Assembly: GCA_050253335.1 (NCBI GenBank) | Contig: JBFWJG010000008.1 | Span: 1 to 58,351, forward strand | DNA: 58,351 nucleotides | From: Deferribacterales bacterium | Lineage (GTDB): Bacteria > Chrysiogenota > Deferribacteres > Deferribacterales > Geovibrionaceae | Direction of reading: 5' to 3' | Shown here: positions 12,203 to 41,727 of the stretch, piece by piece | Layout: each line of letters opens with the position of its first letter | Numbering within the stretch: position 1 is the stretch's first letter | The notes under the pieces: generated by a model | The model's database searches: none | The model's input: only the letters and a program-made list of their open reading frames with translations | What the model was told of the DNA's origin: nothing | Program-made: the position numbers and the translations under genes

Positions 12203-14212
12203 TTACGAAGACATATTCAAAGATTGAGCAAGGCTATTGACTCCTTGTTTAATTTTGTCTAAAGCTGATTGAATTAGAACAATTTCCTCCTCTGTAGGGA
12301 TGGATGCATGAGCATCAAAACGTCCTTGGTTATTTATAACATCCATAGCATTTATGAACAATTCTTGAGGTTTAAAATAATCAGTAAAAGCATCCCAATC
12401 ACTCAAGATCAGTGTTTTAAGACCTTTGAAGTAAATATTTGTTTTTCTTGAATCAAATAGTTCATCGTAAGTACAATCATTATCTTTTAGATTTAGCTTA
12501 TTTTGTACATGTTCTTTTGCTGTATGTATTTTTCCAAGCCTAATCTTTAACACTGTTTTGACCATCAAGCGTAAACGAATTTCCAAGTTTCCTCTTTCTG
12601 TGCAAAGGTACGTCCATTTTTCCTCTTTAGTTTTCAAGAATGGACGTTTAGATTTTTTTAACATATATTCTTTGATTGCATCAATCTTAAAATCATATTT
12701 ATTATCAACGCACTTTATTATTCCATACCCAATGAGATGTGCAATATAAGATTTATCTTCGTTAGCATAAAATTCAAAAGTTTCTGTATCACCATTTGCG
12801 AGTAATTCCAGCATTTCGTACTCATATTTATAAAATTGGATTAATACTTCAAGCAACATATCAAAATAACTAGTTTCATGATTAAATTCATCTTTGACTT
12901 GGTTGTACTTTAATCTATCAATTATTACAGGGCGTTCTTTAAACTTATGAGCAAGAGCACTACCGATTCGCCTTATCAAAAAAGGATGCCCTCCATAGTC
13001 TTCTGTAAGCTTAGAATATATTGTATCTTCAAAATTCATACCCATAGTTTTGCCAAGTTTTCTTACCATTTCTCGTGTTTGCTTTGCATCAAAACCGGGA
13101 ATATACTTAGGTCTAAAAATATTAAATATTGGATTATCTTTTCCTTTAATGGTTGCAATTTCAACACATCTAGGATTGGTTCCCAGAATACAAAAGCTAA
13201 AAACATTATCTGTACGCTGAAAAACACTACGAATTGTTTGCCAAAAGTATATAAAGTCTAGTCCATCACACCAATGGATAGAACTTGACTTATCAAAAGT
13301 AATATTTTCTATTTCATCAAAAAGTAAAAGAATGCTTTTGCCAATTCTTTTATGAAAATCAATTAAATATTTCTCAAATATTTGTGATGCGTTAGTTTCA
13401 GTAAACTCCGATTCTTTGATAGCTTCAATATTGAAATTAATTTTTTTTGCTACTTGTTGAATAACATAGCATAGAGCATGATTCCAAGTCTTCATATTAA
13501 ATGAAGTATCTTGGCAGTCAATAAATATCCCAATACCATCTTTTTGGGGAAGCTTTCTAACAACGTCATAAATAAGTGATGTTTTACCAGTTTTTCTCAA
13601 TCCAAAAATTCCAGAATTCAATTGAGACTTATGTTTCTCAATTATTTCCATTACTAAATCAGTTCTACCGAAAAAGTAATAATCTTTTTTAAGTGGATCA
13701 GAGTAATCAAATAAATCTCTTGAGTAAAAAAAATCTCGAAATCTATTTCTCAAAAAATGGTTATCACTTTTATTTTCTTGAAACTCATAATAATAAAACG
13801 GGATAATAATTTGAGCTTCTTGATTTGATGACAAATTTTTTAGTGAGTGAATGATATTGTTATCTTTGCTAACTAATACATAACATATTTTTTCAACTCT
13901 TGACTCCTGAAATAACTTTTGTACTTTATCATATGCGTCCAAAGAACGAGCTTCAAATTGTTTATAGGGAGTAAAAATTACGATAACTTCTTTGGCTAAA
14001 CTAAAAGCCTCCTCATAATTTTGTGTTGGTTTTATTAAAAGATATTTATATGAACTTTTAGGGCTAACTTGAGAAACACCAGCATTTGTTACGTACCATT
14101 CTCTGCTGAAATAGTTAGCTATATATTGTTCATCATTGTCAAATGAGTATTCTATTTCTCTTCTTGCTTCCTGATGGAAACCTGGTCTTACATTTTCATT
14201 CATAACCAACAT
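12203..14212 (-). CDS. STAND/AAA-like P-loop ATPase with putative C-terminal Swt1-like HEPN domain (candidate defence protein)
   Basis: 669 aa; FFGR, Walker A GLRKTGKTS, Walker B LLLFDEIE, GGHPFL; C-terminal ERGNLEIRLR...IYFKGL...W..F...F...INNQGRFDAH; low GC. Confidence 0.75.
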   Translation of the reverse strand: MLVMNENVRPGFHQEARREIEYSFDNDEQYIANYFSREWYVTNAGVSQVSPKSSYKYLLIKPTQNYEEAFSLAKEVIVIFTPYKQFEARSLDAYDKVQKLFQESRVEKICYVLVSKDNNIIHSLKNLSSNQEAQIIIPFYYYEFQENKSDNHFLRNRFRDFFYSRDLFDYSDPLKKDYYFFGRTDLVMEIIEKHKSQLNSGIFGLRKTGKTSLIYDVVRKLPQKDGIGIFIDCQDTSFNMKTWNHALCYVIQQVAKKINFNIEAIKESEFTETNASQIFEKYLIDFHKRIGKSILLLFDEIENITFDKSSSIHWCDGLDFIYFWQTIRSVFQRTDNVFSFCILGTNPRCVEIATIKGKDNPIFNIFRPKYIPGFDAKQTREMVRKLGKTMGMNFEDTIYSKLTEDYGGHPFLIRRIGSALAHKFKERPVIIDRLKYNQVKDEFNHETSYFDMLLEVLIQFYKYEYEMLELLANGDTETFEFYANEDKSYIAHLIGYGIIKCVDNKYDFKIDAIKEYMLKKSKRPFLKTKEEKWTYLCTERGNLEIRLRLMVKTVLKIRLGKIHTAKEHVQNKLNLKDNDCTYDELFDSRKTNIYFKGLKTLILSDWDAFTDYFKPQELFINAMDVINNQGRFDAHASIPTEEEIVLIQSALDKIKQGVNSLAQSLNMSS

Positions 14213-16311: not shown

Positions 16312-17394
16312 TTAATGTATAAAAGGAACGCTGAGCCTTGAAAGGGCGATGGTTTTCATAATTACATAAATCTCCATCCCTGTCCTTATGCCGAGTTCCG
16401 AAACCGCGGAGCGTGTTACGGTGGCGTAGACCGGAAGTCCGACATCCACAGTGACCGCAACCGCACCGTCATCACTCCTGTCCATGGCTGTTACAGTGCC
16501 TTTCATTATGTTTCTGGCGCTTAATCCTGTGGGCTTGGTTAATGCAAGGGTCACATCATCGGAATGCACAGCGACACGAAGCTCCGTTCCTGTTGCGTGT
16601 TTTGAAGTGGGGATGCCCAGTTTTCCGTTCTCGAACGTGATGATTGAGGGCTCACTTTCCGAAACGGCATAAGCCCGCAGAACACTCACCCGTCCGCTGA
16701 GGCTGAGTATCTCCCTGTTTGCCGGACGTGACACAACATCCTCCACAGAGCCCGAATCAGTACATTTTCCGTTATTCATCAGCACCACATTATCGCACAG
16801 GCTGAAAAGCTCATCTATAGAATGGGTCACATAAAGCACGGGAAGCTTGAAGGTCTGCACCATTTTGCCGATGAATGGGATAAGCTCCTCCTTTCTGTTG
16901 GAATCAAGGGCGGAAAGCGGTTCGTCCATAAGGAGAAAATCGGGCGAGGAGAGCAGGGCACGCCCGATAGCCGCCCTTTGCTTTTCACCGCCGGAGAGCC
17001 TGTGCGGTCTGCGTTTCAGCAGTCCGCCTATCCCAAGAAGCTCCACAACATCATCAAACTTCGCCTTGTGTCCGTTCTCTGCGCTTCTCTTCATTCCGTA
17101 GCGGAGGTTGGCCTCCACTGTCATATGAGGGAAAAGTCTGCCGTCCTGAAAGATGTAGCCTGAATTGCGGGATGGCGCAGGGAGGTTGATTTTATTTCTG
17201 CTGTCATAAAGAACTTTACCGCCGACGGAAACATATCCCTCATCAGGTTTAACAAGCCCCGCGGCTATATTGATTATGCTGGTTTTGCCGGAGCCTGAGC
17301 GCCCGAAGAGTCCCGTCACCATTCCTTCCGTTGTTTTGAATGAAACATCCAGAGTGAAAGCCGGATAGCGTTTTAATGCTCTGAATTCAAGCAT
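16312..17394 (-). CDS. modC: Molybdate ABC transporter ATP-binding protein
   Basis: GRSGSGKT, LSGGEKQR, LLMDEP, C-terminal TOBE domain. Confidence 0.95.
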   Translation of the reverse strand: MLEFRALKRYPAFTLDVSFKTTEGMVTGLFGRSGSGKTSIINIAAGLVKPDEGYVSVGGKVLYDSRNKINLPAPSRNSGYIFQDGRLFPHMTVEANLRYGMKRSAENGHKAKFDDVVELLGIGGLLKRRPHRLSGGEKQRAAIGRALLSSPDFLLMDEPLSALDSNRKEELIPFIGKMVQTFKLPVLYVTHSIDELFSLCDNVVLMNNGKCTDSGSVEDVVSRPANREILSLSGRVSVLRAYAVSESEPSIITFENGKLGIPTSKHATGTELRVAVHSDDVTLALTKPTGLSARNIMKGTVTAMDRSDDGAVAVTVDVGLPVYATVTRSAVSELGIRTGMEIYVIMKTIALSRLSVPFIH

Positions 17395-18091
17395 TGGCTG
17401 CTCCCCTGAGTTTAAGCGCGGCTCTTCTGGAGAGGTATTCGGACGCGGCTATGGCGGCTACGGAAAGCCCGATTGAGATAATGCAGAGCCGGAGCGCCGC
17501 CGCCTCGGTTCCCGGAGTCTGGGTAAGGTTATACAGCGCCACGGGGAGGGTTCTTGTCTCCCCGGGGATATTGGAAACGAAGGTTATAGTGGCTCCGAAC
17601 TCACCTAAGCTTCTGGCGAATGCGAGGACTGTTCCCGTTATAATACCCGGAACAGAAAGGGGAAGGGTGACCGTGAAGAATACCCGCCATCTTTTTGCGC
17701 CGAGTGTTTTTGCCGCCTCCTCAAGCCCTCTGTCTATGCCCTCTATGGAAAGGCGCACACTGCGCACAAGAAGGGGCATGGACATAACAACAGAGGCAAC
17801 GACCGCACCCCTCCATGAGAAGGCTATGCCCGCACCGAAGACGCTGTTCAGCAGCTTGCCGACGGGAGCATTGTCATTAAAAGTTATGAGAAGCAGGTAG
17901 CCAGTCACAACGGGGGGGATAACGAGGGGTACATGGATCAGCCCGTCCAGAAGCAGCTTGCCCGGAAAGTTCTTGCGGGCAAGAACATAAGCGGCGGCAA
18001 TGCCGGGGATAAGCCCGGCAAGCACCGCCCAGAGAGAAATTTTCATACTGAGAGAAATCGCCTCAATCTCTATCGGCGAGAGGTTAAACAT
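17387..18091 (-). CDS. modB: Molybdate ABC transporter permease
   Basis: PLVIPPVVTGY, EEAAKTLGA, FARSLGEFGATI. Confidence 0.96.
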   Translation of the reverse strand: MFNLSPIEIEAISLSMKISLWAVLAGLIPGIAAAYVLARKNFPGKLLLDGLIHVPLVIPPVVTGYLLLITFNDNAPVGKLLNSVFGAGIAFSWRGAVVASVVMSMPLLVRSVRLSIEGIDRGLEEAAKTLGAKRWRVFFTVTLPLSVPGIITGTVLAFARSLGEFGATITFVSNIPGETRTLPVALYNLTQTPGTEAAALRLCIISIGLSVAAIAASEYLSRRAALKLRGAANA

Positions 18092-18093
18092 GC

Positions 18094-18843
18094 TTACTTC
18101 ACCACAATAAATCCGTATTTCAGAAAAACTTCAGAAGCATAATCTGTTTTAAGGAAATTGTAAAACGCTTCTGTTTCGGGGGTGCGTTTTCCTTTTACTA
18201 TGCCCATAGGGTATATGATTTTCCCTGTGAGAGAATCATCCACCAGTGAAATAACCTTTACCTTACTGCTGACTGCGGCATCGGAGAAGTAGACAAAGCC
18301 GTAAGGAACAGCGCGTTCGACCATGGCGAGGGTGGCTCTCACATCCTGCATTCTGGCGGCCTGAGCTTCGATATCTTTCCATATTCCGAGGCCTTCAAGC
18401 GCCTTCTGGGTGTATTTTCCTGCGGGGACATGCTCAGGGTCGCCCATTGCGAATCTTCCGCTGCCGATGAGTTTTTTCACTGCGGCTCCGTCAAGATTTG
18501 ATATCTTCTCTGTTTTTGAGGAGACAGGGGCGATAAATGCGAGCTTGTTCGCGAGGTAGGGAATGTTTGTCCCTGCCTCTATTTTGCCTTTTTCAAGCAG
18601 ATAATCCATCCAGCTCATGTTCGCGGAGATAAAAATGTCCGCGGGAGCGCCGTTTTCGATCTGTTTCGCAAGGGGGCCGGAGGATGCGTAGGAGGCGATT
18701 ACATTAACGCCCTTTTCCTTTTTGTAAGCGGCGATAATTTCTTCCATAGCGTTTGTTACGGAAGCCGCGCCGAAGACAGTGACATCTTTAGCGAAGGCTG
18801 AAACACTGATAAATAAACATAATACAATAATAAGCGTTCTCAT
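18094..18843 (-). CDS. modA: Molybdate ABC transporter substrate-binding protein
   Basis: Signal peptide, AASV, SSGPLAKQIENGAPADIFISA, HVPAGKY; start ATG 18843 after AGAGG. Confidence 0.95.
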   Translation of the reverse strand: MRTLIIVLCLFISVSAFAKDVTVFGAASVTNAMEEIIAAYKKEKGVNVIASYASSGPLAKQIENGAPADIFISANMSWMDYLLEKGKIEAGTNIPYLANKLAFIAPVSSKTEKISNLDGAAVKKLIGSGRFAMGDPEHVPAGKYTQKALEGLGIWKDIEAQAARMQDVRATLAMVERAVPYGFVYFSDAAVSSKVKVISLVDDSLTGKIIYPMGIVKGKRTPETEAFYNFLKTDYASEVFLKYGFIVVK

Positions 18844-19007: not shown

Positions 19008-20189
19008 ATGAGAGCAGTGATTGACATCAACAGACACAAAGGTCTTTACATAATTTTTCTGGCGATGATAGGCGCCACTCCGCCTCTGGCCACTGACATG
19101 TATCTGGCGGCGATTCCCGTCATAGCCGATGAGTGGAACGTGGGGGAGCATCTGGTGAATCTTTCCCTTGTGCTTTGGTTTGCGAGCTTCAGCACATCTC
19201 TCCTTTTTTACGGCCCCCTTTCGGATAAGTTCGGCAGACGCCCGGTTCTTCTCGGCGGTTTGTTTATGTTCGTGCTCTCCTCCGTTTTGTGCACTCTGAG
19301 CGCGAATGTCTGGCAGCTTATAGGCTTCCGCATTTTGCAGGGAGCGGGCGCGGCCGCGCCTTCCGCCATGGTTATGGCGATATGCAGGGACAAATACTCG
19401 GGAGAGGAGCGCAGAAAGGCGCTTGCGTATCTGGGAACTGTTCTGGCTGTCGCGCCTATGGTGGCGCCTATGATCGGGGCTTTTCTTCTCAGTCTGGGTT
19501 CATGGAGATACATTTTCCTCACTCAGGCTGCTATGGTGGCATGCACATTCGCTGTTTCGTTCCTTTTTCAGGAAACAATTCAGGAAAGGTTCAGCGGGGC
19601 GTGGTACAAAGTGTTTTTCAGATACCGCAATGTGTTCTCCAACCGTAAGTTTATGCGTACAAACCTTACTCTGAGCGTTTCGGCGGGACCGCTTTACGGG
19701 TTCATTGCCTTTTCTCCCATATACTACATAGGCATAAACGGCTTTTCAGAGGCTAAGTTCAGCTTTCTCTTCGCGTTCAATGCATTCGGCGCCATGTTCG
19801 GAGCTTTTGTCTGCTCAAGGCTTCTGAAATACTTTAACCCGAATACGCTCATAACCTTTTGTCTGGGGGGCACTCTGTTTGCCGCCTGCGGTCTGTGGCT
19901 TCTGAGCTTTTCCGCATGGTACTTCTTCACCTGCTTCACATTCCTTACCACTTTCTTCATCTGCATGAACAGACCCCTGAGCAACAACCTCATAGTTGAG
20001 CAGGTGAGCACGGACATAGGTTCCGCCTCGTCATTCATGGTTTTCACACAGCTTATGTTCGGCGCACTGTGCATGTTCGCTGTTTCCGGCACACACGCCC
20101 ACAGGCTTGCGGTGTTTAACCTGCTGTTTGCCTCTGTTGCGGTTTTTGTGATGATAAACTGGATTTTCCTGAGAAAGCGCCTGTCCTGA
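19008..20189 (+). CDS. Bcr/CflA family multidrug efflux MFS transporter
   Basis: TDMYLAAIP, GPLSDKFGRRPVL, 12 TM pattern. Confidence 0.9.
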   Translation: MRAVIDINRHKGLYIIFLAMIGATPPLATDMYLAAIPVIADEWNVGEHLVNLSLVLWFASFSTSLLFYGPLSDKFGRRPVLLGGLFMFVLSSVLCTLSANVWQLIGFRILQGAGAAAPSAMVMAICRDKYSGEERRKALAYLGTVLAVAPMVAPMIGAFLLSLGSWRYIFLTQAAMVACTFAVSFLFQETIQERFSGAWYKVFFRYRNVFSNRKFMRTNLTLSVSAGPLYGFIAFSPIYYIGINGFSEAKFSFLFAFNAFGAMFGAFVCSRLLKYFNPNTLITFCLGGTLFAACGLWLLSFSAWYFFTCFTFLTTFFICMNRPLSNNLIVEQVSTDIGSASSFMVFTQLMFGALCMFAVSGTHAHRLAVFNLLFASVAVFVMINWIFLRKRLS

Positions 20190-20199
20190 AGGGTTTTAA

Positions 20200-20973
20200 T
20201 CAGCTTTCGAACTCGGCGGTTATTCTTTTTTCCTCCTCCGGAGTGAGGAGGATCGGCGGCATGAGTGAATCTGGCTTTATTTTTCTGGGATTTTTAATCC
20301 ATTTAATCAGTATTTCCCTGTTCCATCTTCCGCCTTCCGCCTTTACGGCATCCGCGGGGTAATATTCGCTGAACAGTCCGGAAAGGTTCGGTGCGGTGTT
20401 CCCATGCCCTGTACCGCCACTTTTGCGGGTAAGCAGTCTGTGGCATCCGCCGCATTTTTCATCGAAAGCGCTCTTTTTCCCCTGAGTTATGAAGACAACA
20501 TAAGGGGCTGTTCCCGAAACCTTTTTTGCGCTTCCGCCCGCATTAAGGATGTACCTGACGGAATCTTCGGCGGTTTTGTCGTTCATGCGGAAATCAGGCA
20601 TGTAGTCCGTGGGTTTCATCAGCTTGTCTTTCAGTGTTTCTGCGGTTTTGCGTCTGCTTTCGGTATCAAGGTCAGGGGCAATGTCATTACCCTTGCCCCC
20701 AATGATGTGGCATCTTCTGCAATGGGCGTTTTCTATGGTTTTTCCGCCGCCGGAGACAGCCTGACGGTTTATGATGAAGTCAGCGTATTTCTTTGTTATC
20801 AGCCCGCTGTGGGCTATGTTTTTCCTGCTTGTTTCACTGTTTCCCCTGTGGCAGACAGTGCATGAGCCTGTTTTCTCATAATGGGGCTTGTGGCACTTCA
20901 CGCACATGGACGCAAAGGCGGGGAAAGCAGGAAGGCTGAGAAAAATCAGAAGTAAAAGGGCACGAGCGACCAA
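20200..20973 (-). CDS. extS: Tetraheme c-type cytochrome, ExtS-like
   Basis: Signal peptide and four CXXCH motifs (CVKCH, CTVCH, CRRCH, CGGCH), PNLSGL, W..NPR..KP...MPP; resembles the Geobacter ext-operon cytochrome ExtS from recollection, not from a search. Confidence 0.7.
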   Translation of the reverse strand: MVARALLLLIFLSLPAFPAFASMCVKCHKPHYEKTGSCTVCHRGNSETSRKNIAHSGLITKKYADFIINRQAVSGGGKTIENAHCRRCHIIGGKGNDIAPDLDTESRRKTAETLKDKLMKPTDYMPDFRMNDKTAEDSVRYILNAGGSAKKVSGTAPYVVFITQGKKSAFDEKCGGCHRLLTRKSGGTGHGNTAPNLSGLFSEYYPADAVKAEGGRWNREILIKWIKNPRKIKPDSLMPPILLTPEEEKRITAEFES

Positions 20974-21971
20974 TTCTCACCTCTGAAAAACATTGCAACT
21001 GCCGTGAGCACAAGAACAGCCGCGCACAGAAACAGCGTGAACCCCCAGACGGGAGCATCTTTTTTCGCAAACCAGACGGCTGTTTCCGGCTGATATTTCC
21101 TGCGGAAATCAGGCAGAAAGAAATACAGGATAAACAGCACCGCAAAAGGATTGAACAGCCATGCCTTCCAGCTTACTATCTCCTGAATCCACAGCAGGAA
21201 CCACGCGCTTTTCGCGGGGTTCGGGGGGAGCGCCGGATCTGCCGGTTCCTCAAGGGGTGCGCCTGAGACAACTGCCAGCACAGCAGGCAGCGCCGCTGCC
21301 GCAGCCGCAATAACCCATGTGAGGTTAAAGAGATAGGGCTCGCTCTTTGTTTTTGTTCTGTCATCTTTCGGGTGCAGACCGCCGTCCCTGCGGACATTGT
21401 AAAGATGGGCGGATATGAGAAACACGCACAGAAGCGGAATGAGGGCTATGTGCATGGCGAAAAACCTTATAAGTGAGAGCCTGCCCCCGACATCGTCCGG
21501 CGTGAGCAGTCTGCGGATGAAATCGCCGAAGGGAAGGACATTTACAAGCTCCATCCCTGTTTTGGTCGCCCAGTATGAAAGCTGATCCATAGGAAGAAGA
21601 ACCCCTGTGTAGGCCTCAAACACCAGAAGACCGAAGAGGATATAGCCCAGCTTCCAGTTGGAAGGCCTGACAGCGTATGTTCCGGTGAATATGGTGCGCA
21701 CCATGTGCAGGGCAAGGGCAATGAGCAGTATGTGTGAGCTCCAGAGATGCATGGCGCGGATGAAACGCCCGCCGAAAACCTTCTCCTCAAGATGGATTAT
21801 TGATGAATATGCGGCTGTGCTTTCCGGTGAGTAGTAGAAGAGAAGCAGAACTCCCGTTACGCACAGGCTGAGAAAGAGAGCGGTTATCAGCCCGCCCATA
21901 AAGAGAGTTCCGTTAACTGCCGCTTTGCTGAATGTTTTGGGATATAGATGAACAAGATAGCGCTTTATCAC
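20946..21971 (-). CDS. Cytochrome b (b6-like N-terminal part fused to subunit-IV/ExtQ-like C-terminal part)
   Basis: Heme b His pairs RAMHLWSSHILLIALALH and FFAMHIALIPLLCVFLISAH; LPMDQLSYWA; C-terminal APLEEPADP..PPNPAKSAWFL. Confidence 0.88.
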   Translation of the reverse strand: MIKRYLVHLYPKTFSKAAVNGTLFMGGLITALFLSLCVTGVLLLFYYSPESTAAYSSIIHLEEKVFGGRFIRAMHLWSSHILLIALALHMVRTIFTGTYAVRPSNWKLGYILFGLLVFEAYTGVLLPMDQLSYWATKTGMELVNVLPFGDFIRRLLTPDDVGGRLSLIRFFAMHIALIPLLCVFLISAHLYNVRRDGGLHPKDDRTKTKSEPYLFNLTWVIAAAAAALPAVLAVVSGAPLEEPADPALPPNPAKSAWFLLWIQEIVSWKAWLFNPFAVLFILYFFLPDFRRKYQPETAVWFAKKDAPVWGFTLFLCAAVLVLTAVAMFFRGENWSLVPFYF

Positions 21972-22384
21972 GCGTTCACCTGTCTGAATACGGTTATCAC
22001 GCCGTCTGCGGTTTCTGTTCTGTATGTGTCAAGCCTGCGTTCAGCCGGGCCTTTTATCACTGTTCCGTCAAGGGCAAATATGCTTCCGTGGCAGGGGCAG
22101 GCGAACCTGTCGCCGTCGAGGGCTATTGTGCAGCCCAGATGGGTGCATACCAGTGACATTGCGCTCACAGCGCCGTCCATCCGCATCACGGCTATGTTTT
22201 TATCTGGAAAGATAACCGCTCCCCCTTCGGGTATGTCGGCTTCCTGAGCCTGGATCAGTATTTCTCCGCCTGAATTCTCAGGGGTGAGGAACCTGTAAAT
22301 AAACCAGAGGGAAAAGGCGGAAACGGTCAGTGCCGCAAGTCTGCCCAGAAATCCCCTTCTGGAGATGCTTTTTTGTTCTGTCAT
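21968..22384 (-). CDS. Rieske [2Fe-2S] protein of a Rieske/cytochrome b complex
   Basis: Tat motif SRRGFL plus TM helix; CTHLGC and CPCHGS. Confidence 0.93.
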   Translation of the reverse strand: MTEQKSISRRGFLGRLAALTVSAFSLWFIYRFLTPENSGGEILIQAQEADIPEGGAVIFPDKNIAVMRMDGAVSAMSLVCTHLGCTIALDGDRFACPCHGSIFALDGTVIKGPAERRLDTYRTETADGVITVFRQVNA

Positions 22385-22407
22385 TCAAGTTATCCCGAAA
22401 AAAATGA

Positions 22408-22436
22408 TGCCGCAGGCGGGGTTAACCGCCCGCGGC
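22408..22436 (-). terminator. Intra-operon hairpin between the NrfD gene and the Rieske gene
   Basis: GCCGCAGGCGG/CCGCCCGCGGC stem followed on the minus strand by ATCATTTTTTT. Confidence 0.5.
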
Positions 22437-22446
22437 TTTTAAGGTT

Positions 22447-23370
22447 TCAATATTGAATCATAATATAGTCGGTAAATTTCTGTGTGTAAACACCTGCGTG
22501 GAGTATGAGATGACGCAGGAAGTAGCCTCCGGCGAGGACAAGCAGTTCGAAGAAAACAAGCTTGCCTCCGCTGATGTGGAGTTTGCCCGCCTCAACAAAG
22601 GCAAAAACAAACGCCGGAACCACAAGCCCGAGAAGCACAAGGAACACCCAGAACTCAACGGCGAACTCTCCTGTGAGGAGCGCAAGGGCGGAGAACCTCA
22701 TTTCAGGCACACCCTGAAGGGCTATGAGCATCATGCCTATGAGCAGAAGGATCTCAAGCATTATCAGGTAGAAATGCGTGGTCTCTATTTTCGCCAGATG
22801 AGCCTCCTCCTTGAAGAAGAGCTCCTTCACCACCATAGCGCCCGAAATCCCCGTGGATGAGGCGGATATGATGAAGAGTATGGGCAGTGCTGTCTGGTGC
22901 CAGAAGGGGATTGCCTTGAGCACGCCGAGAAGAACCGCCGTGTAGCCCGCTGTGAGTATGCCCGTGATGATCAGAGACCATCTCATAAAGCCGCTTGCGG
23001 CTATGGGTTTGAATATTTTCAGAATACCCAGTTTATCGAGAATGCCGAGGTTATAAGCACCGTAGACCAGCGAAAGTATTGTGAAGATAGTAAGTATAAG
23101 CGTACCCCACATGATCGCAGATGTCGGGTTAACAAACAGCAGCGCAAGGAGCCACGGCTTGTACATCCCCTGACCGAGGTCGATGTAAAGGAAGAATATA
23201 CCTATGGAAACAAGGGGCATGCCTATCACGCTTGCCGCTTTTATGAATGATATATATTTCTGTCTGTCGTACATATCCGCGAGGGAGGCGACAACTATGG
23301 AGCCCGCACCCACACCCGCGAGGAACAGATAAACCGCTATGTACCAATGGAAGCCTGTCTGAAATTCCAT
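22447..23370 (-). CDS. nrfD: NrfD/PsrC family membrane anchor (quinol oxidase subunit)
   Basis: W.IAVYLFLAGVGAG, DLG, S.IMWG, YTAVLL...IPFW, GGYFLR; about 8 TM. Confidence 0.92.
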   Translation of the reverse strand: MEFQTGFHWYIAVYLFLAGVGAGSIVVASLADMYDRQKYISFIKAASVIGMPLVSIGIFFLYIDLGQGMYKPWLLALLFVNPTSAIMWGTLILTIFTILSLVYGAYNLGILDKLGILKIFKPIAASGFMRWSLIITGILTAGYTAVLLGVLKAIPFWHQTALPILFIISASSTGISGAMVVKELFFKEEAHLAKIETTHFYLIMLEILLLIGMMLIALQGVPEMRFSALALLTGEFAVEFWVFLVLLGLVVPAFVFAFVEAGKLHISGGKLVFFELLVLAGGYFLRHLILHAGVYTQKFTDYIMIQY

Positions 23371-23379
23371 TTTGTCCTC

Positions 23380-23958
23380 CTACTTCTGGATGTAATAAAT
23401 GTTCGGCTCAGTGCCCAGATCCCTGCGGAGGGTCCAGACTCTGTACCTGTTGTCAGCGGCATCCTTCAGAGCCTTTGAGATCTCGCTTTCGGGATCGTTT
23501 ATATCGCCGAAGACTCTTGCCCTGCCCGGGCATGTGGTGACACAGGCGGGCATGAGGCCGTCATATATTCTCGGCAGACAGAAGGTGCACTTGTCCGCAA
23601 CGCCCAGTTCATTGTTGAAGAACCTTGCGTTGTAGGGGCAGGAGGGGATGCAGTAGCGGCAGCCCACGCATTTGCGGTTGTCGATGTCCACAACCCCGTC
23701 CTCTCTTTTGTGGCTTGCCTTTGTGGGGCATACCGTAACGCAGGGTGCATCGTCGCAGTGATTGCACTGATGCGGAAGGAAATGCATGCTGAGCCTTTCC
23801 GTTGCCGCGGGGGCTATGCCTGTGTCTATATGCGTGCGGAAATCGTTCTCCGGAACCTGCCACTCAGCCTTGCACGCTACCATGCATGCTTTGCAGTCCA
23901 CGCATCTGTCCACTATGTATGCCATTGCGAATTTTTTTGTTTTATCTGCTGTGCTCAT
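23380..23958 (-). CDS. psrB: 4Fe-4S electron-transfer subunit (PsrB/PhsB type)
   Basis: CVDCKACMVAC, CNHCDDAPCVTVCP, CVGCRYCIPSCPY, KCTFC, PACVTTCP; ATG 23958 after GAGGAG. Confidence 0.9.
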   Translation of the reverse strand: MSTADKTKKFAMAYIVDRCVDCKACMVACKAEWQVPENDFRTHIDTGIAPAATERLSMHFLPHQCNHCDDAPCVTVCPTKASHKREDGVVDIDNRKCVGCRYCIPSCPYNARFFNNELGVADKCTFCLPRIYDGLMPACVTTCPGRARVFGDINDPESEISKALKDAADNRYRVWTLRRDLGTEPNIYYIQK

Positions 23959-23971
23959 ATCAGGCTCCTCC

Positions 23972-26173
23972 CTAAGCGATCTCAATTTTCACGAAGCCGT
24001 TGTGAAAGCCTGCGGCGCCGCTTATGGGGTCTGTGAGGTCGGAGGTGAAGTCCGATGTTCTGGCTCCCTTGCCGGCTATCCTTGTGAGCCCTTTTGATTC
24101 ATGACCGAAGCCGTAGGGGAGGAATACCGCCTGCGGATGGATGTAGTCCACAACCTTTGCTGTACATGGGTTGCTTTTGAATCCTTCCTTAACAAGGCGC
24201 ACCTGCATTCCGTCTTTTATTCCCAGCGCCTTGGCTCTTTCGGTGTGAATCCACAGGGGCACTTCGGACTTATGAAGCGCAAGGAGCCATGCGTTGTTCT
24301 GCGTGCGCGCGTGGGTGTGGAAGCTTATTCTGCCGAAAAGAAGCCTGAACTCGCCTTCCGCCGGAACGGGGTTTTCCTCGTATGACGGCATGGGGGGGTA
24401 TGAAAAATGCTCGGCAAGGTTGCTGTAAAACTCGGCTTTGCCTGAAGGAGTTCTGAAAGAGGGTTCCTCTTCGTAGTCCTCCACAGGGTAGGGGGAGCTT
24501 TCGTTGCCTATGAATATGCCGTTTTTCTTCATATATTCCTCGTCAACGCCGAGGGATTCGAATGCCTGTCTGTTGTACTCGCTTATGTCCATGAACTTGT
24601 TTTCATAGCCCATGGTTTCAAGGAGTCTGCTTACCATATCCCAGCTTCCGAGAGTTTCAAAAACGGGATCGACAGCCTTTTCCCTGTACTGCACAAAACC
24701 CGCTCTGCGCCCTGTGGTGATCACAGGCTCAGTGCGCTCAAGGTAGGTGGATTCGGGAAGAATAACGTCGGAGTACCATGCGGTGTCCGTCATGTAGATT
24801 TCGCATGTTACTATCAGTTCAGTGTTTTCTATAGCTTTTCTGACAGTGTCTGTATTCCCGTGGTGGTGCAGCGGGTTGCAGCCGTATATAAACATTCCTT
24901 TAAGCGGGGAGGACTGTTCGGCTATGGCCTTGATTGTTCCGTTGGAAAAACCGAGGTTTTTGGGCCCGAGGGGGAAGTTCTCTCCGCCTGCGCCGTCTGC
25001 TCTGTCTGCGTAGGGTTTATCATACTCAATCATTGAAGGCGCATCGTATTTGAAGCCTATGGTACGGTAAAGACCGCCCCTTACCTCCCAGTTGCCCAGA
25101 AGCATGTTGAGACATGCCACAATTCTGGTGAACTGAGTGTCGTTTCCGTATCTGGTGAGCCTTCTGCCCGGGTGGACATAAGAGCGCGGAGCCGCTTTGC
25201 AGAGCTTTTCCGCAGCCTTTATGATCTCTTCCTGCGGGATTTCGGTTATCTGCGAGGCCCACTCAACTGTGTAGCCCGCCACATGCTTTCTGAACTGTTC
25301 AAAGCCGTAAGTGTAGCTGTCCACAAAGTCTTTGTTATAGATCTCTTTTTCTATTATGTAGTTAATCATGCCGAGAAGCAGAGCGGAGTCTGTTCCGGGT
25401 TTAATCATCATGTACTGGTTGGCCTTCGCCGCTGTTTTTGTGAAGCGGGGGTCAACATAGATTACGTGCGCGCCCTTTGCGACACCTTCCACAAAGTCCT
25501 GCATTTCGCCCACATGAAGCGCCTCGACTATGTTCCTGCCGAGCAGCATCATGCATTTTGAGTTCTGTGAGTCGACAGGCTCTTTGCCGCCCACAGGCTT
25601 TCCGAAGGAGAGCGCCCAGCCGATGTCGCGGCTGCCGGTACACTGTGAATATGAGGGCACGCATATGTTGGGTGAACCCATTATTTCCATCATCTGGATA
25701 AACGGATCCTGTCCTGAACCGTGGCAGAAAAGGCTGAAAGTTTCGGGGCCGTACTTTTCTTTAAGTTCGTTTGTTTTCTGTGCGACATAGGCTATGGCTT
25801 CTTCCCATGTGGCTTTTCTGAATTTGCCTGAGCCTCTTTCCCCGTCTCTGATCAGCGGGGTTTTAAGCCTGTCCGGATCATAGAGCTGAAAAACGCCTGC
25901 GTTCCCTTTCGCGCAGAGCTTGCCGTAGTTGCTGGGGCAGTCGGGCTGACCTTCCAGTTTTCTCACTTTTCCGTTGACCACTTTGGCTGTAAGCCCGCAT
26001 TTCCAGAAGCACATTTCGCACCAGTTCTGTGCGTATGTCACTCCCTGCTGGGGTTCCGCAACTGCGGATGAACCGCCGGTGAGCAGACGGAAAGATGACA
26101 TGGACGCTAATGCCGCGCCCACTGAAGCCGTTCCCTGAATAAAACGTCTCCGGGAGATTCTGCATTTTGTCAT
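23972..26173 (-). CDS. psrA: Mo-bisPGD oxidoreductase catalytic subunit, polysulfide/thiosulfate/selenite reductase (PsrA/PhsA/SrrA) clade
   Basis: Tat signal SRRRFIQ, FS0 cluster CEMCFWKC...LCAKG, putative Cys Mo ligand in SQCTGSR, DVILPESTYLER, HTHARTQNN. Confidence 0.85.
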   Translation of the reverse strand: MTKCRISRRRFIQGTASVGAALASMSSFRLLTGGSSAVAEPQQGVTYAQNWCEMCFWKCGLTAKVVNGKVRKLEGQPDCPSNYGKLCAKGNAGVFQLYDPDRLKTPLIRDGERGSGKFRKATWEEAIAYVAQKTNELKEKYGPETFSLFCHGSGQDPFIQMMEIMGSPNICVPSYSQCTGSRDIGWALSFGKPVGGKEPVDSQNSKCMMLLGRNIVEALHVGEMQDFVEGVAKGAHVIYVDPRFTKTAAKANQYMMIKPGTDSALLLGMINYIIEKEIYNKDFVDSYTYGFEQFRKHVAGYTVEWASQITEIPQEEIIKAAEKLCKAAPRSYVHPGRRLTRYGNDTQFTRIVACLNMLLGNWEVRGGLYRTIGFKYDAPSMIEYDKPYADRADGAGGENFPLGPKNLGFSNGTIKAIAEQSSPLKGMFIYGCNPLHHHGNTDTVRKAIENTELIVTCEIYMTDTAWYSDVILPESTYLERTEPVITTGRRAGFVQYREKAVDPVFETLGSWDMVSRLLETMGYENKFMDISEYNRQAFESLGVDEEYMKKNGIFIGNESSPYPVEDYEEEPSFRTPSGKAEFYSNLAEHFSYPPMPSYEENPVPAEGEFRLLFGRISFHTHARTQNNAWLLALHKSEVPLWIHTERAKALGIKDGMQVRLVKEGFKSNPCTAKVVDYIHPQAVFLPYGFGHESKGLTRIAGKGARTSDFTSDLTDPISGAAGFHNGFVKIEIA

Positions 26174-26400
26174 GGATTCCCTCGTTTTGAAGTTTATATG
26201 CGAATTAACGCATGTTTGAACTTTAAATAAACATTAACTGTAGATTAGTTCCGTGAGTAAAAAGTGTCAATAAAAAGTGACAAAAAAATCACTATTGGCG
26301 CGGGTGATAGGTGAGATTTGATGAACCTATCAATTGCTTCTATATTTCGTGTTTTAACAAAATAATTGACTCTCCTATATATATAATATATAGAAATTGC

Positions 26401-26715
26401 ATGGCATTGAGAGATCTTAACGACAAAGAACTTGAAGAAGTACTGGGAATATTCAAAGCGCTTTCCAATCCTGTGCGCCTGCGCATAGCCAAAATGGTGT
26501 GTGAAAGACCCAGATACGGGTATGAGATCGAAGAAGCCTTCGACTGTGAAAGAACCAACATTACAAAGCATATTAATCTGATGAAGGACGCCGGACTGCT
26601 GAAAGCGTACAAAGAAGGGAGAAAAACACTTTTTGTTCTCCAGACCGGCTACATTAAGAACAGCCTTCTTGGATGCGTTGACCACGACAAGCTGATTGAA
26701 AACTCAAAAGCTTAG
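26401..26715 (+). CDS. ArsR/SmtB family transcriptional regulator
   Basis: FKALSNPVRLRI, wHTH (ITKHINLMKDAGLL...KEGR); three Cys; divergent from psrA. Confidence 0.9.
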   Translation: MALRDLNDKELEEVLGIFKALSNPVRLRIAKMVCERPRYGYEIEEAFDCERTNITKHINLMKDAGLLKAYKEGRKTLFVLQTGYIKNSLLGCVDHDKLIENSKA

Positions 26716-27017
26716 TGATTTTATAGGTTTTTTTACAGACTGAGGTATTTCTTTTTTCTATAGGGCTGCATCTTTTTCAGCACTGAAATAGCATCCAAAA
26801 TCCGTCCTCCTCCGATCATCCTTTCTGTTCCCGATTTTACAGGGCATTTCGCATCACATCGGCTGAAAAGTTTTCTGTATCCTGATTCCGGTCTGCATCT
26901 TTTTTTTGTCCGTTTTATCAGTCCCATATGAAATATTAGTGAAAAAATAATCACACACGTGTTGACGCCCGCCGAAACAGCCGTATATACTTGTTTATGT
27001 TTATTCGGAGGTGTTTT

Positions 27018-27503
27018 ATGAAGAAGGTTTTAGTTGCCGCCGCCGCTCTCTCGGCGCTGCTCCTGAGCTTCACGGCATATGCCGCGGCTCCTGAGAATCT
27101 GGCCAAGGTGCGGGATGCAAAACTCGCGGAGGCAAGAAAGGCGATTACCGAGGTTTCCCCTGCTGAGGTGGCGGAAATGGCGGCGAAAGGCGAGTCTTTT
27201 GTGATTCTGGATATCAGAGAGGCAGACGAGCAGGGGATGGTTATTGCTCAGGGAACACTCAAAAAAATCCCCAGAGGGCTTCTTGAATGGGTGGCGGCAG
27301 GTCAGCTCGATGCTGATGACAAAATTGTGGTCTACTGCAAAACAGGTGCGCGTGGTGCTTTTGCAACCCAGCTTCTGAACGAGCTCGGCTACAAAAACGC
27401 GGTAAATATGAAAGGCGGCATAGTCGGCTGGCTTGAGGCCGGATACGCGGTGCAGACGTACATAGGCGAGATAAAGCCTTCCGACTACAAGTTTTCCAAC
27501 TGA
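27018..27503 (+). CDS. Exported single-domain rhodanese (sulfurtransferase)
   Basis: Signal peptide ending AYA, LDIRE, active-site loop YCKTGAR, MKGGIVGW; GGAGG RBS. Confidence 0.92.
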   Translation: MKKVLVAAAALSALLLSFTAYAAAPENLAKVRDAKLAEARKAITEVSPAEVAEMAAKGESFVILDIREADEQGMVIAQGTLKKIPRGLLEWVAAGQLDADDKIVVYCKTGARGAFATQLLNELGYKNAVNMKGGIVGWLEAGYAVQTYIGEIKPSDYKFSN

Positions 27504-36739: not shown

Positions 36740-37843
36740 ATGAGCAGAAACAGCCTTTTCGGGGCTAATGTCTCAAGACGTGACGTGCTGAAATTCAGCG
36801 TGGGTGTCACGGCTTTGATGGGACTTCCTTATTCAATGCATACGGCAATAGCAGATGCGGCAACGTCCGATAACCGTCCGCCTGTCATCTGGCTCCATTT
36901 TCAGGAGTGTACCGGTTGTTCAGAGTCTCTTTTAAGGTCTGACCATCCGACGCCTGCCGCTCTTCTTCTCGACATGATCTCTCTGGATTACCATGAAACA
37001 CTCATGGTCGGTTCAGGACATCAGGCCGAGAAATCGCTTCATGATTCAATGGAAGCGAACAAAGGTAAATATATTCTTATAGTTGAGGGAGCTGTGCCCC
37101 TCGCCGAAAACGGCATTTACTGCAAAGTCGGCGGCAAAACAGCCAAGGATTCTCTCCTTGAGGCAGCTTCAGGCGCCGCCGCTATAATCAACATAGGCAC
37201 ATGTTCATCCTTCGGCGGTGTTCAGGCAGCGGCTCCGAACCCCACGCAGGCGGTTTCCGCGGACAGCCTTATCAAAGACAAACCTGTGATCAACATTCCC
37301 GGCTGTCCTCCCAGCCCCTACAACCTGCTTGCAACTGTTCTTTATATCCTTACCCTCGGCAAGCTTCCTGAGCTTGACGACAAGAAAAGACCTGTTTTCG
37401 CTTACGGCAGAAAGATACACGAACACTGCGAAAGAAGACCCCACTTCGATGCGGGCAGATTCGCGGAAAACTTCGACGATGAAGGACACAGACTCGGCTA
37501 CTGCCTTTACAAGCTCGGCTGCAAAGGTCCCGCCACTTTCGCCAACTGCTCCGTGCAGAGATTCAACGATGTGGGCGTATGGCCTGTTTCCGTTGGCCAC
37601 CCCTGCATAGGCTGTACAGAGCCTGATGTTATGTTCCACCTTTCGATATTCGACAAGGTGCAGGTGCATAACCCCACTCCTCCCGATTTCTACCCCAATG
37701 CCAACCCTGAAAGCAGGGGCAAAGGCGCTGACCCGCTCACTACGGGTATAGTAGGTCTTGTAGGCGGTGCCGCGATAGGTGCCAGCGCAATGGTGGCTGC
37801 GAACCTTCCCAAGGAGGAGAATAATGAAGAAGACGAGGCGTGA
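36740..37843 (+). CDS. hybO: [NiFe]-hydrogenase small subunit (Hyb type)
   Basis: Tat SRRDVLK, ECTGCSES, GTCSSFGG, PGCPP, HEHCERR, CLYKLGCKGP, HPCIGC, C-terminal TM. Confidence 0.93.
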   Translation: MSRNSLFGANVSRRDVLKFSVGVTALMGLPYSMHTAIADAATSDNRPPVIWLHFQECTGCSESLLRSDHPTPAALLLDMISLDYHETLMVGSGHQAEKSLHDSMEANKGKYILIVEGAVPLAENGIYCKVGGKTAKDSLLEAASGAAAIINIGTCSSFGGVQAAAPNPTQAVSADSLIKDKPVINIPGCPPSPYNLLATVLYILTLGKLPELDDKKRPVFAYGRKIHEHCERRPHFDAGRFAENFDDEGHRLGYCLYKLGCKGPATFANCSVQRFNDVGVWPVSVGHPCIGCTEPDVMFHLSIFDKVQVHNPTPPDFYPNANPESRGKGADPLTTGIVGLVGGAAIGASAMVAANLPKEENNEEDEA

Positions 37844-38759
37844 GTTTATAAAACTCGCGGCTCTCAGCGGCGCGGGCATTGCTGCCGCTCCGCTGGCGGC
37901 GGAAGCTTCTGCTCCCATCGCCGCAAATGAAGAAGCCGTGGGTATGCTTTATGATGCCACGCTCTGCGTCGGCTGTAAGGCATGCGTTGCGAGCTGCAAA
38001 AATGTCAACGACATGGACGCCGCTCCTGCGCCTAATGATGAGGACAGGCTTTGGGATGCTCCCGAGGATCTGGACTACAGAACCAGAAACATAATAAAGC
38101 TCTATAAAGACGGTGAGGGCGATTTCTCTTATGTGAAGCATCAGTGTATGCACTGCATAAAGCCTTCATGTGTTTCCGCCTGCCCGGTTGCCGCAATGCA
38201 GCAGGAAAAGGACAGGGGAATCGTTTTTTACGACAAGGATATATGCATCGGCTGCCGCTATTGTCAGGTTGCCTGCCCGTTTAATATCCCCAAGTTTGAA
38301 TGGCCGAAGCCTTTCCCGAAAATAGTGAAGTGCGACCTCTGCAAGTTCACTAACCTCAAGGACAAAGGCATTCCCGCATGCTGCGATGTGTGCCCCACTC
38401 AGGCGGTGATATACGGCAAAAGGAACTTTCTCCTTGCGGAAGCGAAGAAGAGAATTGCTGAAAACCCCGGCAAATATCAGAAAGAGATATACGGCGAGTT
38501 TGAAGTCGGCGGAACAAACGTCATCTACATCGCCGGCGAAACTTTCGACAATCTCGGTTTCAGAGAGCTTGAGTTCGACTCGAACGCGGCTTTCTCCGAA
38601 AACATTCAGCACACGATTTACAAAGGCTTCGTAGCTCCTGTGGCTCTTTACGGTTTCCTCGCCTTCGTAGCGCTTAAAAACCGCAAAAACCACCACGGTC
38701 ACGGTCATGGACACGGACACGACGCCAAACACGAGGATAAACATGGTTCCGAAAAGTAA
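37824..38759 (+). CDS. hybA: Hydrogenase-2 Fe-S subunit HybA
   Basis: Tat TRREFIK, four ferredoxin Cys clusters, YGEFEVGGT, C-terminal TM and His-rich tail. Confidence 0.93.
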   Translation: MKKTRREFIKLAALSGAGIAAAPLAAEASAPIAANEEAVGMLYDATLCVGCKACVASCKNVNDMDAAPAPNDEDRLWDAPEDLDYRTRNIIKLYKDGEGDFSYVKHQCMHCIKPSCVSACPVAAMQQEKDRGIVFYDKDICIGCRYCQVACPFNIPKFEWPKPFPKIVKCDLCKFTNLKDKGIPACCDVCPTQAVIYGKRNFLLAEAKKRIAENPGKYQKEIYGEFEVGGTNVIYIAGETFDNLGFRELEFDSNAAFSENIQHTIYKGFVAPVALYGFLAFVALKNRKNHHGHGHGHGHDAKHEDKHGSEK

Positions 38760-39942
38760 TGAATATATGGCACTGCACCGTGAGAAGATTCTCACCCCGT
38801 CTTTCTGGGTGCTTCTTGCGTTCACGGTAATCGGCTTTTACTGCATCGGCCTCCGTTATGTAATGGGTATCGGCGCGGTGAGTAACCTTTCGGACGGTTT
38901 CCCCTGGGGTATCTGGATCGCCTATGACGTTGCGACAGGCACGGCTCTCGCCTGCGGCGGATACGCTCTTGCTATCGTGATTTACATCATGAACGGCTGG
39001 AAATACCACCCCCTTATCCGTTCCGCGATTGTTACATCTATGTTCGGTTATGCTCTTGCGGGCTTCTCCGTTATGGTGGATCTCGGAAGGTACTGGAACG
39101 CCTACAGCTTCTTCATACCTTCACGCTGGCAGGTGAACTCGGTTATGTTCGAGGTCGCTGTCTGCGTTATGGCATATAACGTGGTTCTTGCCATCGAGCT
39201 TCTTCCCGCGCTTCTGGAAAGGTTTGTGCACTCAACAAACCCCCGTTTCCCTAAGCTTAAAGAGTTTGCGAGAAAAATTTACCCGAAACTTGATAAAGTG
39301 CTTATCTTCTTCATCGTTCTGGGTATCACACTGCCTACAATGCACCAGTCCTCGCTGGGCTCTATGATGATAATTGCCGGTTCCAAGCTGAACCCCATAT
39401 GGCAGACAGGTTTCCTTCCTGTTCTTTTCCTCATAAACGCCATGTATATAGGCTACTCTGTCATCATTTTCGAATCCACACTGTCTTCAGTGGCGTTCGG
39501 AAGACCCTTTGAGAAGGAAGTAAGGATAATCGCAAAAGTTATCCCCTACCTCACTGCTGCGTGGCTGATAATCCGTTTTGCAGACCTCTACTACAGAGGC
39601 CACCTCTCAACGGCTTTCTCAGGGGACTACTACTCCAAGATGTTCCTCGCTGAAACCCTGCTTATCGCGGGCGGTGCGTACATGCTCACATGGAAGCATT
39701 TCAGAATGTCTCCCAGATGGGTCTTTGTTTCCGCTGTGATGCTCTGCGTAGGCGGTTCATGGTACAGGTTCAGTGTTTATATCATCGGCTTCAACCCCGA
39801 TAAGGGATGGTCATACTTCCCCTCACTGCCTGAGTTTTTCATAACCCTCGGTCTCGTGGCTTTTGAAATTCTCGGCTACATGGTGCTGGTGAAGATGTTC
39901 CCCATCATGCCCAACCTTGAAGGGCACAAGAAGAGCGCATAA
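38743..39942 (+). CDS. hybB: Hydrogenase-2 NrfD-like membrane subunit HybB
   Basis: PWGIWIAYDV, DLGRYWN, LPTMHQSSLGS; start after GAGGA (alternative 38767). Confidence 0.92.
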   Translation: MVPKSNEYMALHREKILTPSFWVLLAFTVIGFYCIGLRYVMGIGAVSNLSDGFPWGIWIAYDVATGTALACGGYALAIVIYIMNGWKYHPLIRSAIVTSMFGYALAGFSVMVDLGRYWNAYSFFIPSRWQVNSVMFEVAVCVMAYNVVLAIELLPALLERFVHSTNPRFPKLKEFARKIYPKLDKVLIFFIVLGITLPTMHQSSLGSMMIIAGSKLNPIWQTGFLPVLFLINAMYIGYSVIIFESTLSSVAFGRPFEKEVRIIAKVIPYLTAAWLIIRFADLYYRGHLSTAFSGDYYSKMFLAETLLIAGGAYMLTWKHFRMSPRWVFVSAVMLCVGGSWYRFSVYIIGFNPDKGWSYFPSLPEFFITLGLVAFEILGYMVLVKMFPIMPNLEGHKKSA

Positions 39943-39961
39943 ATTTTCAGGAGATTAAATA

Positions 39962-41644: not shown

Positions 41645-41651
41645 TACAAAC

Positions 41652-41687
41652 AAAGCGGGGCAAGGTGCAGACCTGTCCCGCTTTTTT
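41652..41687 (+). terminator. Rho-independent terminator between hybC and hybD
   Basis: AAAGCGGGGCA...TGTCCCGCTTTTTT. Confidence 0.6.
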
Positions 41688-41727
41688 CTGTTGCGCTTCA
41701 CTGCGCAATGATTTATACGGAGCACTT

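Follow-up and report, generated by a model that had tools for sequence, protein, structure and literature searches.

The locus at positions 20200-27503 of a Deferribacterales contig (JBFWJG010000008.1, assembly GCA_050253335.1) raises the question of why an operon for a molybdoenzyme of the polysulfide reductase type (psrABC), which has a quinone-reactive membrane anchor of its own, is followed by a second quinone-reactive module composed of a Rieske protein, a cytochrome b and a tetraheme cytochrome c. The window is the whole stretch of 58,351 nucleotides (nt) that was analyzed, and statements attributed here to published papers refer to parts of their text. Both quinone-reactive membrane modules, already recognized in an earlier note on this DNA, are present. 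The answer favored here, with a probability of about 0.6, is that the window contains that half of an ext gene cluster which holds the catalyst and the inner-membrane components, and that the cluster would serve elemental sulfur (polysulfide) respiration and accept interchangeable catalysts. According to the literature, the ext cluster of Geobacter sulfurreducens consists of extHIJKLMNOPQS (PMC5877670), and its ExtKL has been renamed MccSep, a selenocysteine-containing pentaheme polysulfide reductase required for growth on S0 (PMC13510729).

All six genes lie on the minus strand, arranged as the earlier note had described them: psrA, psrB and an NrfD-family gene, a 62-nt gap, and the overlapping Rieske, cytochrome b and tetraheme cytochrome genes. 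The gene psrA (23972-26173) encodes a 733-amino-acid molybdopterin catalytic subunit of the Psr/Phs/Srr lineage, with a twin-arginine translocation (TAT) signal, an N-terminal Fe4S4 motif, molybdopterin domains and Pfam matches PF00384, PF04879, PF01568 and PF10518. It is followed by psrB (23380-23958; 192 amino acids from an ATG start), coding for a four-cluster 4Fe-4S subunit (Pfam Fer4_11, TtrB/NrfC-like), and by psrC (22447-23370), coding for an NrfD-family membrane anchor (PF03916, 122 bits) with eight hydrophobic segments in a hydropathy scan; a search of the PDB with the psrC sequence gave no match. The best NCBIfam model for PsrA is PhsA at 456 bits, which is below the cut-off of 694, so that the PhsA equivalog (NF012032) is not reached; the scores for Fdh, DmsA, ArrA and TtrA are 288, 243, 128 and 55 bits, respectively. 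The top PDB match is 2VPW (505 bits, E-value 3e-150), with a runner-up at 193 bits and ArrA at 127. Judged by these NCBIfam and PDB scores, PsrA is nearer to Psr/Phs than to Arr, Ttr, Dms or Fdh. A PsrA cysteine aligns within the same motif as in 2VPW, where we take the aligned residue to be the Mo ligand of the Thermus enzyme. Cys ligation of Mo is described for the PsrA/PhsA/SrrA lineage (PMC7331816).

The ABC gene order and the eight-helix NrfD anchor, by which PsrABC is recognized (PMC2500031), are both found in the window. They are shared with the PsrABC of Thermus thermophilus (2VPW) and Wolinella succinogenes, as is a Sud-like rhodanese (1QXN), and the TAT-exported Mo subunit of the window aligns with Thermus PsrA across residues 33-732. 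The psr operons of these organisms have three genes (PMC2500031), whereas psrABC of the window is followed by the Rieske/cytochrome b/tetraheme module. Salmonella PhsABC and Bacillus selenitireducens SrrA belong to the same catalytic lineage (PMC7331816), but the window differs from PhsABC by its sub-cut-off PhsA score and by an NrfD-type anchor in place of the five-helix PhsC. The same genome has a second Psr-type operon, broken over contigs (C111:190-1329 and C68:8-2012) and about 40% identical to the window PsrA; no ext genes stand beside it within the contig parts seen.

The second module begins with extO (21968-22384), which codes for a Rieske 2Fe-2S protein (PF00355) with a twin-arginine leader and the S-F signature CPCHGSIF. 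It is overlapped by 4 nt by extPQ (20946-21971), whose end is in turn overlapped, by 25-28 nt depending on the start codon, by extS (20200-20973), the gene for an exported tetraheme cytochrome c with exactly four CxxCH motifs. The suggestion of the earlier note that the three extra genes resemble the distal ext genes holds: ExtS scores 266 bits against NF040971 (cut-off 100), and ExtP and ExtQ are the best models for the cytochrome b, yet under their cut-offs (ExtP, 173 bits of 290; ExtQ, 114 of 150), as they also are for the split forms of relatives. The cytochrome b gene reported by that note is likewise present, but the positions of the two matches (residues 2-200 and 209-337) correct it to a fusion of a cytochrome b6-like ExtP part and a subunit IV-like ExtQ part.

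All four heme b histidines (H75, H89, H174 and H189) and both Rieske boxes are intact. The window extPQ has the Qo motif SAWF instead of PEWY and no heme cn cysteine. Over 97 aligned homologues this motif reads SAWF in 82, AAWF in 13 and SGWF in 2, and the Rieske motif CxxHGSxF is found in 91 of 91 aligned homologues; the short ext cytochrome b forms retain CLGG, and the fused ones are without the cysteine. ExtS has an N-terminal close heme pair followed by two class I-like domains, in which M125 and M238 are invariant. Its predicted structure (mean confidence score, pLDDT, 61.5) matched only class I cytochromes c, and these fold matches were weak, all with E-values above 0.001. Where canonical bc1/b6f Q-cycle complexes have a P[E/D]W[Y/F] Qo motif and cytochrome c1 or f, SAWF and ExtS are found instead. 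Replacement of PxWY by SxWF is the mark of cytochrome bc subfamily L, which includes a Denitrovibrio protein (Dacet_1797) and for which, as for other new subfamilies, the describing paper left the electron acceptors unaddressed (PMC5600118). Judged by motif and lineage, ExtO-ExtPQ-ExtS is a cofactor-complete Rieske/cytochrome b complex of the subfamily L type, with which it shares SxWF, the long fused form without the CxGG cysteine and the short forms with CLGG; the link to Psr and MccSep seen here was not found in the parts of that paper considered (PMC5600118). During these model searches, the NCBIfam entry NF040968, named 'FeS_ExtO', was observed to have 416 positions and to score the 10-heme ExtN (477 bits; L045:6860-8206) and not the Rieske protein. 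The model was apparently derived from the wrong gene, and as a result ExtN will be wrongly annotated as ExtO.

The earlier note had described a hybrid lacking the porin and multiheme genes of ext, which proved incorrect. Using tblastn with the genes of a relative, extH, I, J, M and N were sited on contig C31 (4736-10755) of the same genome at 32-67%, so that the porin, the large rhodanese and the 10- and 11-heme cytochromes are all present; in the relative, ExtI, ExtM and ExtN are over their cut-offs and ExtH is under (119 of 200). The locus is thus no one-off hybrid: it is one half of a complete ext cluster that has been split, and the gene order is conserved across families. The split is found in the genome of the window (G000) and its genus, including the single-contig genome G003, in which about 527 kb separate extM from extS; in many relatives the cluster is joined, and many read extH-I-M-N-psrABC-extO-PQ-S. 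In G003, extH (L063:13838-15158) consists of two open reading frames (ORFs) of 245 and 161 amino acids, possibly because of a frameshift. In G063, a genome of another family of the phylum, rhodanese genes and a psr operon converge on an extHIJMNOPQS cluster. Compared with Geobacter sulfurreducens, the window organism shares the order extO, P, Q, S, the presence of extH, I, J, M and N, and an associated S-S reductase; it differs in having a Mo-dependent, NrfD-anchored PsrABC instead of MccSep, fused ExtP and ExtQ without the heme cn cysteine, a split cluster and a terminator-like hairpin before extO.

The linkage of the two modules was surveyed in the extS regions of 31 ExtS-positive relatives (the ExtS-positive genome G067 was left out), and a Psr/Phs-type operon is located upstream in 24 of the 31 loci. 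In 15 it is an NrfD-type psrABC on the same strand, standing directly before the Rieske gene in 13 (with one small gene between in 3 of them) and before extMN in 2; in another 9 the Rieske gene is immediately preceded by a divergent Phs-like enzyme of 838-863 amino acids that has a cytochrome b561 anchor. The remaining loci comprise 3 on too-short contigs, 2 deleted clusters and 2 with Psr about 10 kb off or on another contig. Sixty-eight genomes of the phylum were available, 34 of them with ExtS over the cut-off. The clade of the window PsrA (at least 47% identity and at least 754 bits, the next score being 425) is found in 18 of the 34 ExtS-positive genomes and in none of the 34 ExtS-negative ones, 13 of which carry other Psr-like paralogues; no P value is given, since kin are non-independent and neighboring genes are lost together. 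The earlier note had tied its own refutation to an absence of co-transcription combined with an absence of conserved linkage, and the linkage is conserved in other genomes.

The catalyst linked to ext differs between genomes. When the phylum of the window was queried with an MccSep protein, none of its 34 ExtS-positive genomes, G000 included, gave a match; one ExtS-negative genome gave a weak match (20.5 bits). A scan of a named genome collection gave 24 loci, of which the two Denitrovibrio loci, with PsrA 57-59% identical to that of the window, were excluded from all tallies. At the Trichloromonas locus L070, MccSep (NF040886, 595 bits, five CxxCH motifs, in-frame TGA at codon 332) lies between extI/J and extM, and it lies likewise in three Vicinamibacteria loci. 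At L087 (Desulfuromonadales), L082 (Vicinamibacteria) and L143, a Psr-type ABC occupies this place, and the genomes of L087 and L082 have no MccSep over the cut-off.

The same exchange was seen in a sample of the class Desulfuromonadia, to which G068 belongs: 91 genomes, 50 of them with ExtS, from which 49 loci were fetched (G068 excluded). MccSep was found at 22 loci, a Psr-type operon upstream at 12, neither at 15, and both upstream at none. The Psr-type operon stands strictly between extI/J and extM or extO in 3 of its 12 loci and before extM or extH in the rest; in addition, two of the MccSep loci have a tetrathionate-reductase-like gene downstream. At the genome level, none of the 12 Psr genomes has MccSep over the cut-off, and 9 of the 15 with neither at the locus do; among the six that remain, five have a Psr-type gene elsewhere, and the sixth has no Rieske/cytochrome b beside a partial extS. 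All 41 ExtS-negative genomes of the class lack MccSep by a model that gave matches in other genome sets. In this sample MccSep is always accompanied by the Ext module, Psr may stand alone, and nearly every intact Ext module has one or the other.

To judge by a FastTree phylogeny of concatenated ExtP, Q and S from 75 of 77 loci (L087 and L143, with truncated ExtS, were dropped), the catalyst may have switched about seven times: its label changes 7 times on the tree, against a mean of 25 and a minimum of 16 for shuffled labels. The deep supports are weak, and the midpoint root does not fix the direction of the changes. The ext-linked Mo subunits fall in several deep lineages of a quick, long-branched tree that holds no characterized PsrA, PhsA or SrrA references, and their anchors are of the NrfD type, of the cytochrome b561 type, or missing. 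Two clusters, L107:5959-14765 and L109:6257-14783, read extI, extJ, chaperone, psrA, psrB (268 amino acids), extO, P, Q, S, with neither a C subunit nor extMN; genome-wide, G159 gave no NrfD match, with the limit that incomplete genomes cannot prove absence. At L116, L120, L121 and L129, a three-domain rhodanese of 460-470 amino acids with one CxxCH precedes psrA, and the order of the subunit genes is A-C-B, not A-B-C.

The earlier note had proposed sulfur or selenium oxyanion redox. The weight now moves from selenium oxyanions to sulfur, because PsrABC stands in place of MccSep/ExtKL, which is a polysulfide reductase (PMC13510729). Polysulfide would enter through the porin ExtI and be held by rhodaneses (ExtH on C31 and the Sud-like protein of the window), as is expected from the families of these proteins. 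PsrA, given its family, would cleave the S-S bond at its Mo-Cys site with menaquinol electrons delivered via PsrC and PsrB. The distribution of Psr and MccSep is mutually exclusive, from which we infer functional equivalence, PsrABC performing the job that MccSep has in Geobacter. The motifs of ExtO-ExtPQ-ExtS suggest that it would link the same menaquinone pool to a periplasmic heme chain, ExtS-ExtN-ExtM. In the window organism, the two membrane modules would most likely work side by side via the shared quinone pool and not as a fixed supercomplex. The ancestral job of ExtOPQS was most likely to feed the S-S reductase by spending proton motive force, a role favored because MccSep and the anchor-less PsrAB of L107 and L109 have no other quinone link within their clusters; reduction driven by proton motive force has a precedent in Salmonella Phs. 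More tentatively, ExtO-P-Q-S could be a dedicated energy-converting device of sulfur respiration, a socket for any recruited S-S reductase, whether the selenium-heme MccSep, the NrfD-anchored Psr, Phs-like enzymes or the anchor-less PsrAB. In such a device, either quinol would be oxidized at the inner site and its electrons driven outward along the b hemes by proton motive force, or quinol bifurcation would lift menaquinol electrons to the potential of polysulfide.

Several observations weigh against a role of the locus in sulfur respiration, and the first of them are phenotypes and the limits of sequence comparison. Several Deferribacteres with psrABC are listed as non-S0-reducing (PMC6896113), among them Denitrovibrio acetiphilus, which also has a cytochrome b of subfamily L (PMC5600118); Calditerrivibrio and Seleniivibrio are listed likewise (Table 2 of PMC6896113). 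Polysulfide, thiosulfate and selenite reductases are inseparable by sequence (PMC2500031, PMC7331816). PsrA may instead be an SrrA- or PhsA-like reductase of selenite (or of thiosulfate/tetrathionate), with the Rieske chain feeding the higher-potential oxyanion and conserving energy by an ordinary Q cycle. SrrA and PhsA are in the lineage of PsrA (PMC7331816), MccSep reduces selenite too (PMC13510729), deletion of extI impairs selenite and tellurite reduction (PMC6148476), a mid-potential Rieske protein would suit such acceptors, and the anchor in family f7 is of the cytochrome b561 type, which is PhsC-like. This alternative is nevertheless considered unlikely in view of the window anchor, which with its eight hydrophobic segments is of the Psr type (PMC2500031), and of MccSep itself, which has an about sevenfold preference for polysulfide and shows no activity on thiosulfate or tetrathionate (PMC13510729). 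The Sud-like character of the rhodanese also speaks for polysulfide.

The second difficulty for sulfur respiration concerns redox potentials. Polysulfide has a potential of about -260 mV and menaquinol of about -80 mV. Rieske proteins with the S-F signature belong to the 'Mid+' class, of about 150-260 mV (PMC4122944). With a mid-potential S-F Rieske protein and Met-ligated ExtS hemes, an ordinary high-potential chain cannot itself reduce polysulfide. By its sequence, the high-potential chain of the module looks functional, and its failure to reach polysulfide is the main puzzle. Every cofactor would run downhill only in sulfide oxidation, where a reversed Psr would pass electrons to menaquinol, and ExtOPQS would in turn take them up in a Q cycle, so that nitrate or Fe(III) is reduced by way of ExtS and ExtN/M. 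The Psr of Wolinella is said to have reverse activity. In Geobacter, ext proteins are up on Fe(III) oxide (PMC5877670). On the other hand, Deferrivibrio V6Fe1 and Deferribacter autotrophicus are reported to be incapable of sulfide oxidation, and the demonstrated role of MccSep is reduction. Moreover, the Deferrivibrio nrfD, which is located beside a porin/rhodanese gene, is nitrate-repressed in a strain that reduces and does not oxidize sulfur (PMC11896075), its orthology to the window gene being putative. Sulfide oxidation therefore appears quite unlikely.

The remaining objections concern the tie between the two modules. In the class sample, 3 of the 31 genomes with MccSep contain, at another place, a Psr-type gene of at least 350 bits, and 10 of the 41 ExtS-negative genomes carry a Psr-type gene, Psr being independent of Ext. 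Neither ExtP nor the clade of the window PsrA is found in two genomes of the phylum, G024 and G037, and these were discarded as cases of independent co-loss, each resembling one deletion. In the decayed ext cluster of G024 (L042:5567-9017), an insertion-sequence-like block replaces the stretch from the end of extN through extP, and in that of G037 (L040:4339-5622), extN runs into a remnant of extQ. Finally, a G+C-rich hairpin is located on the minus strand between psrC and extO (22409-22436; 11 pairs, 10 of them G-C, with a U run 4 nt later), for which z is -3.97 and which none of 200 shuffles equaled. All 10 loci of the family that have a psrC-extO junction show a similar hairpin behind psrC, in most cases with a U run, which makes full co-transcription doubtful. 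By its sequence it is a terminator-like or RNA-stabilizing element, which would lower the expression of extOPQS relative to psrABC. Since the extO start is no more than 24 nt away, there is little room for a promoter, and lower-level read-through would be expected. A promoter-like match at 22490-22462 (10 of 12 positions) lies upstream of the hairpin and was set aside as no evidence, the scan having given 9 sites against 7.0 expected.

In the contigs of four metatranscriptome runs of one study, in which DNA in the library is possible, one contig spans 22389-22597; it crosses the hairpin and ends 5 nt before extO, about 10 nt past the U run, and is too short for bridging. Another contig piece covers 20865-21161 (extPQ/extS). 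Outside the family of the window the junction differs. Of the 9 loci of f7, 5 have a 1-nt overlap between the stop of the anchor gene and the start of the Rieske gene. In f3 and f4 (3 loci), a small exported-protein gene fills the psrC-extO gap and no such hairpin is found. This gap protein (L037, L038 and L041) is conserved, has 112-114 amino acids and belongs to no tested family.

The hairpin would also suit separate, merely co-regulated modules, with ExtOPQS acting as a general complex III in Fe(III)/Mn(IV) respiration and standing beside sulfur genes only because one niche calls for both. Such a separation is consistent with the genus-wide split of the cluster, with the position of Psr in G042 and G022 (about 10 kb away or on another contig) and with the proposal that the bc-like core of the ext cluster is the general quinol-oxidation site of Geobacter (PMC2825233). 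It would, however, leave aside that unrelated S-S reductases were repeatedly recruited to the same place, that MccSep never occurs without ExtS in the class sample, and that stop and start overlap in f7, and we regard it as very unlikely.

Returning to sulfur respiration with exchangeable catalysts, each part of the system is known, namely the ext cluster, its bc-like core, MccSep, subfamily L and the Psr clusters of Deferribacterales. For Deferrivibrio and D. desulfuricans, a psr-like operon beside a porin and a rhodanese gene has been described; the parts of PMC11896075 considered mention neither Rieske nor ExtI, and the corresponding parts of PMC13186404 and PMC12142623 do not mention Rieske either. 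Replacement of ExtH is described in PMC6148476, in the considered parts of which no replacement of ExtKL was seen. The 2026 paper that established MccSep as the Geobacter sulfur reductase (PMC13510729) names no electron donor to it in the sections considered, and its main text lacks the words Rieske, quinol, menaquinone and operon. Neither linkage of Psr to the ext bc module nor its exchange with MccSep was found described in the open literature, a search that excludes most subscription papers and supplements; Fig. S1 of PMC5600118, which depicts gene neighborhoods, may already show the linkage, and data S1/S2 of PMC13510729 may be relevant to it. The swap was thus not found in print and is apparently new.

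As the earlier note had observed, a cysteine-containing ArsR and an exported rhodanese are encoded divergently, on the plus strand. The ArsR-family regulator (26401-26715, identified by family scans) has three cysteines, Cys34, Cys49 and Cys92, which are retained in five close orthologues, and from its position it may regulate the operon. The rhodanese (27018-27503) is a single-domain protein (PF00581) with a signal peptide; it is Sud-like, as it matches Wolinella Sud (PDB 1QXN, E-value 5.7e-13), and its active loop reads CKTGAR versus CKTAAR. The ArsR/rhodanese pair is confined to part of the family. The modABC genes noted nearby are indeed present (16312-18843, minus strand, beyond a convergent MFS gene at 19008-20189), but modABC was rejected as a conserved component of the system, since it adjoins in 3 of 31 loci, all of the window's genus. 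About 10 kb from psrA, a Hydrogenase-2-type operon (36740-42216, plus strand) encodes small, Fe-S, HybB-type membrane and large subunits, and its product is likely an electron donor to the quinone pool. A 669-amino-acid ATPase-like ORF with the motif GLRKTGKT (12203-14212, minus strand) lies in a low-G+C stretch (30% versus about 50%) and gave no NCBIfam match at 1e-40; this stretch is possibly a defense or mobile island.

Taken over the genomes compared here, one Rieske/cytochrome b module accompanies two unrelated polysulfide reductases in three phyla. The swap joins two questions, that of the electron donor of MccSep and that of the function of subfamily L cytochrome bc complexes, and the exchange of catalysts on a conserved chassis gives an uncharacterized complex III subfamily a testable job. 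Deferribacterales have several Psr paralogues, and the swap helps to tell which of them is the true sulfur reductase; it also suggests that the label 'selenite/tellurite reduction operon' understates the sulfur role of the ext genes. If ExtOPQS is indeed energy-converting, it would supply the connection, so far missing, from the quinone pool to the reduction of sulfur in acetate-oxidizing sulfur reducers.

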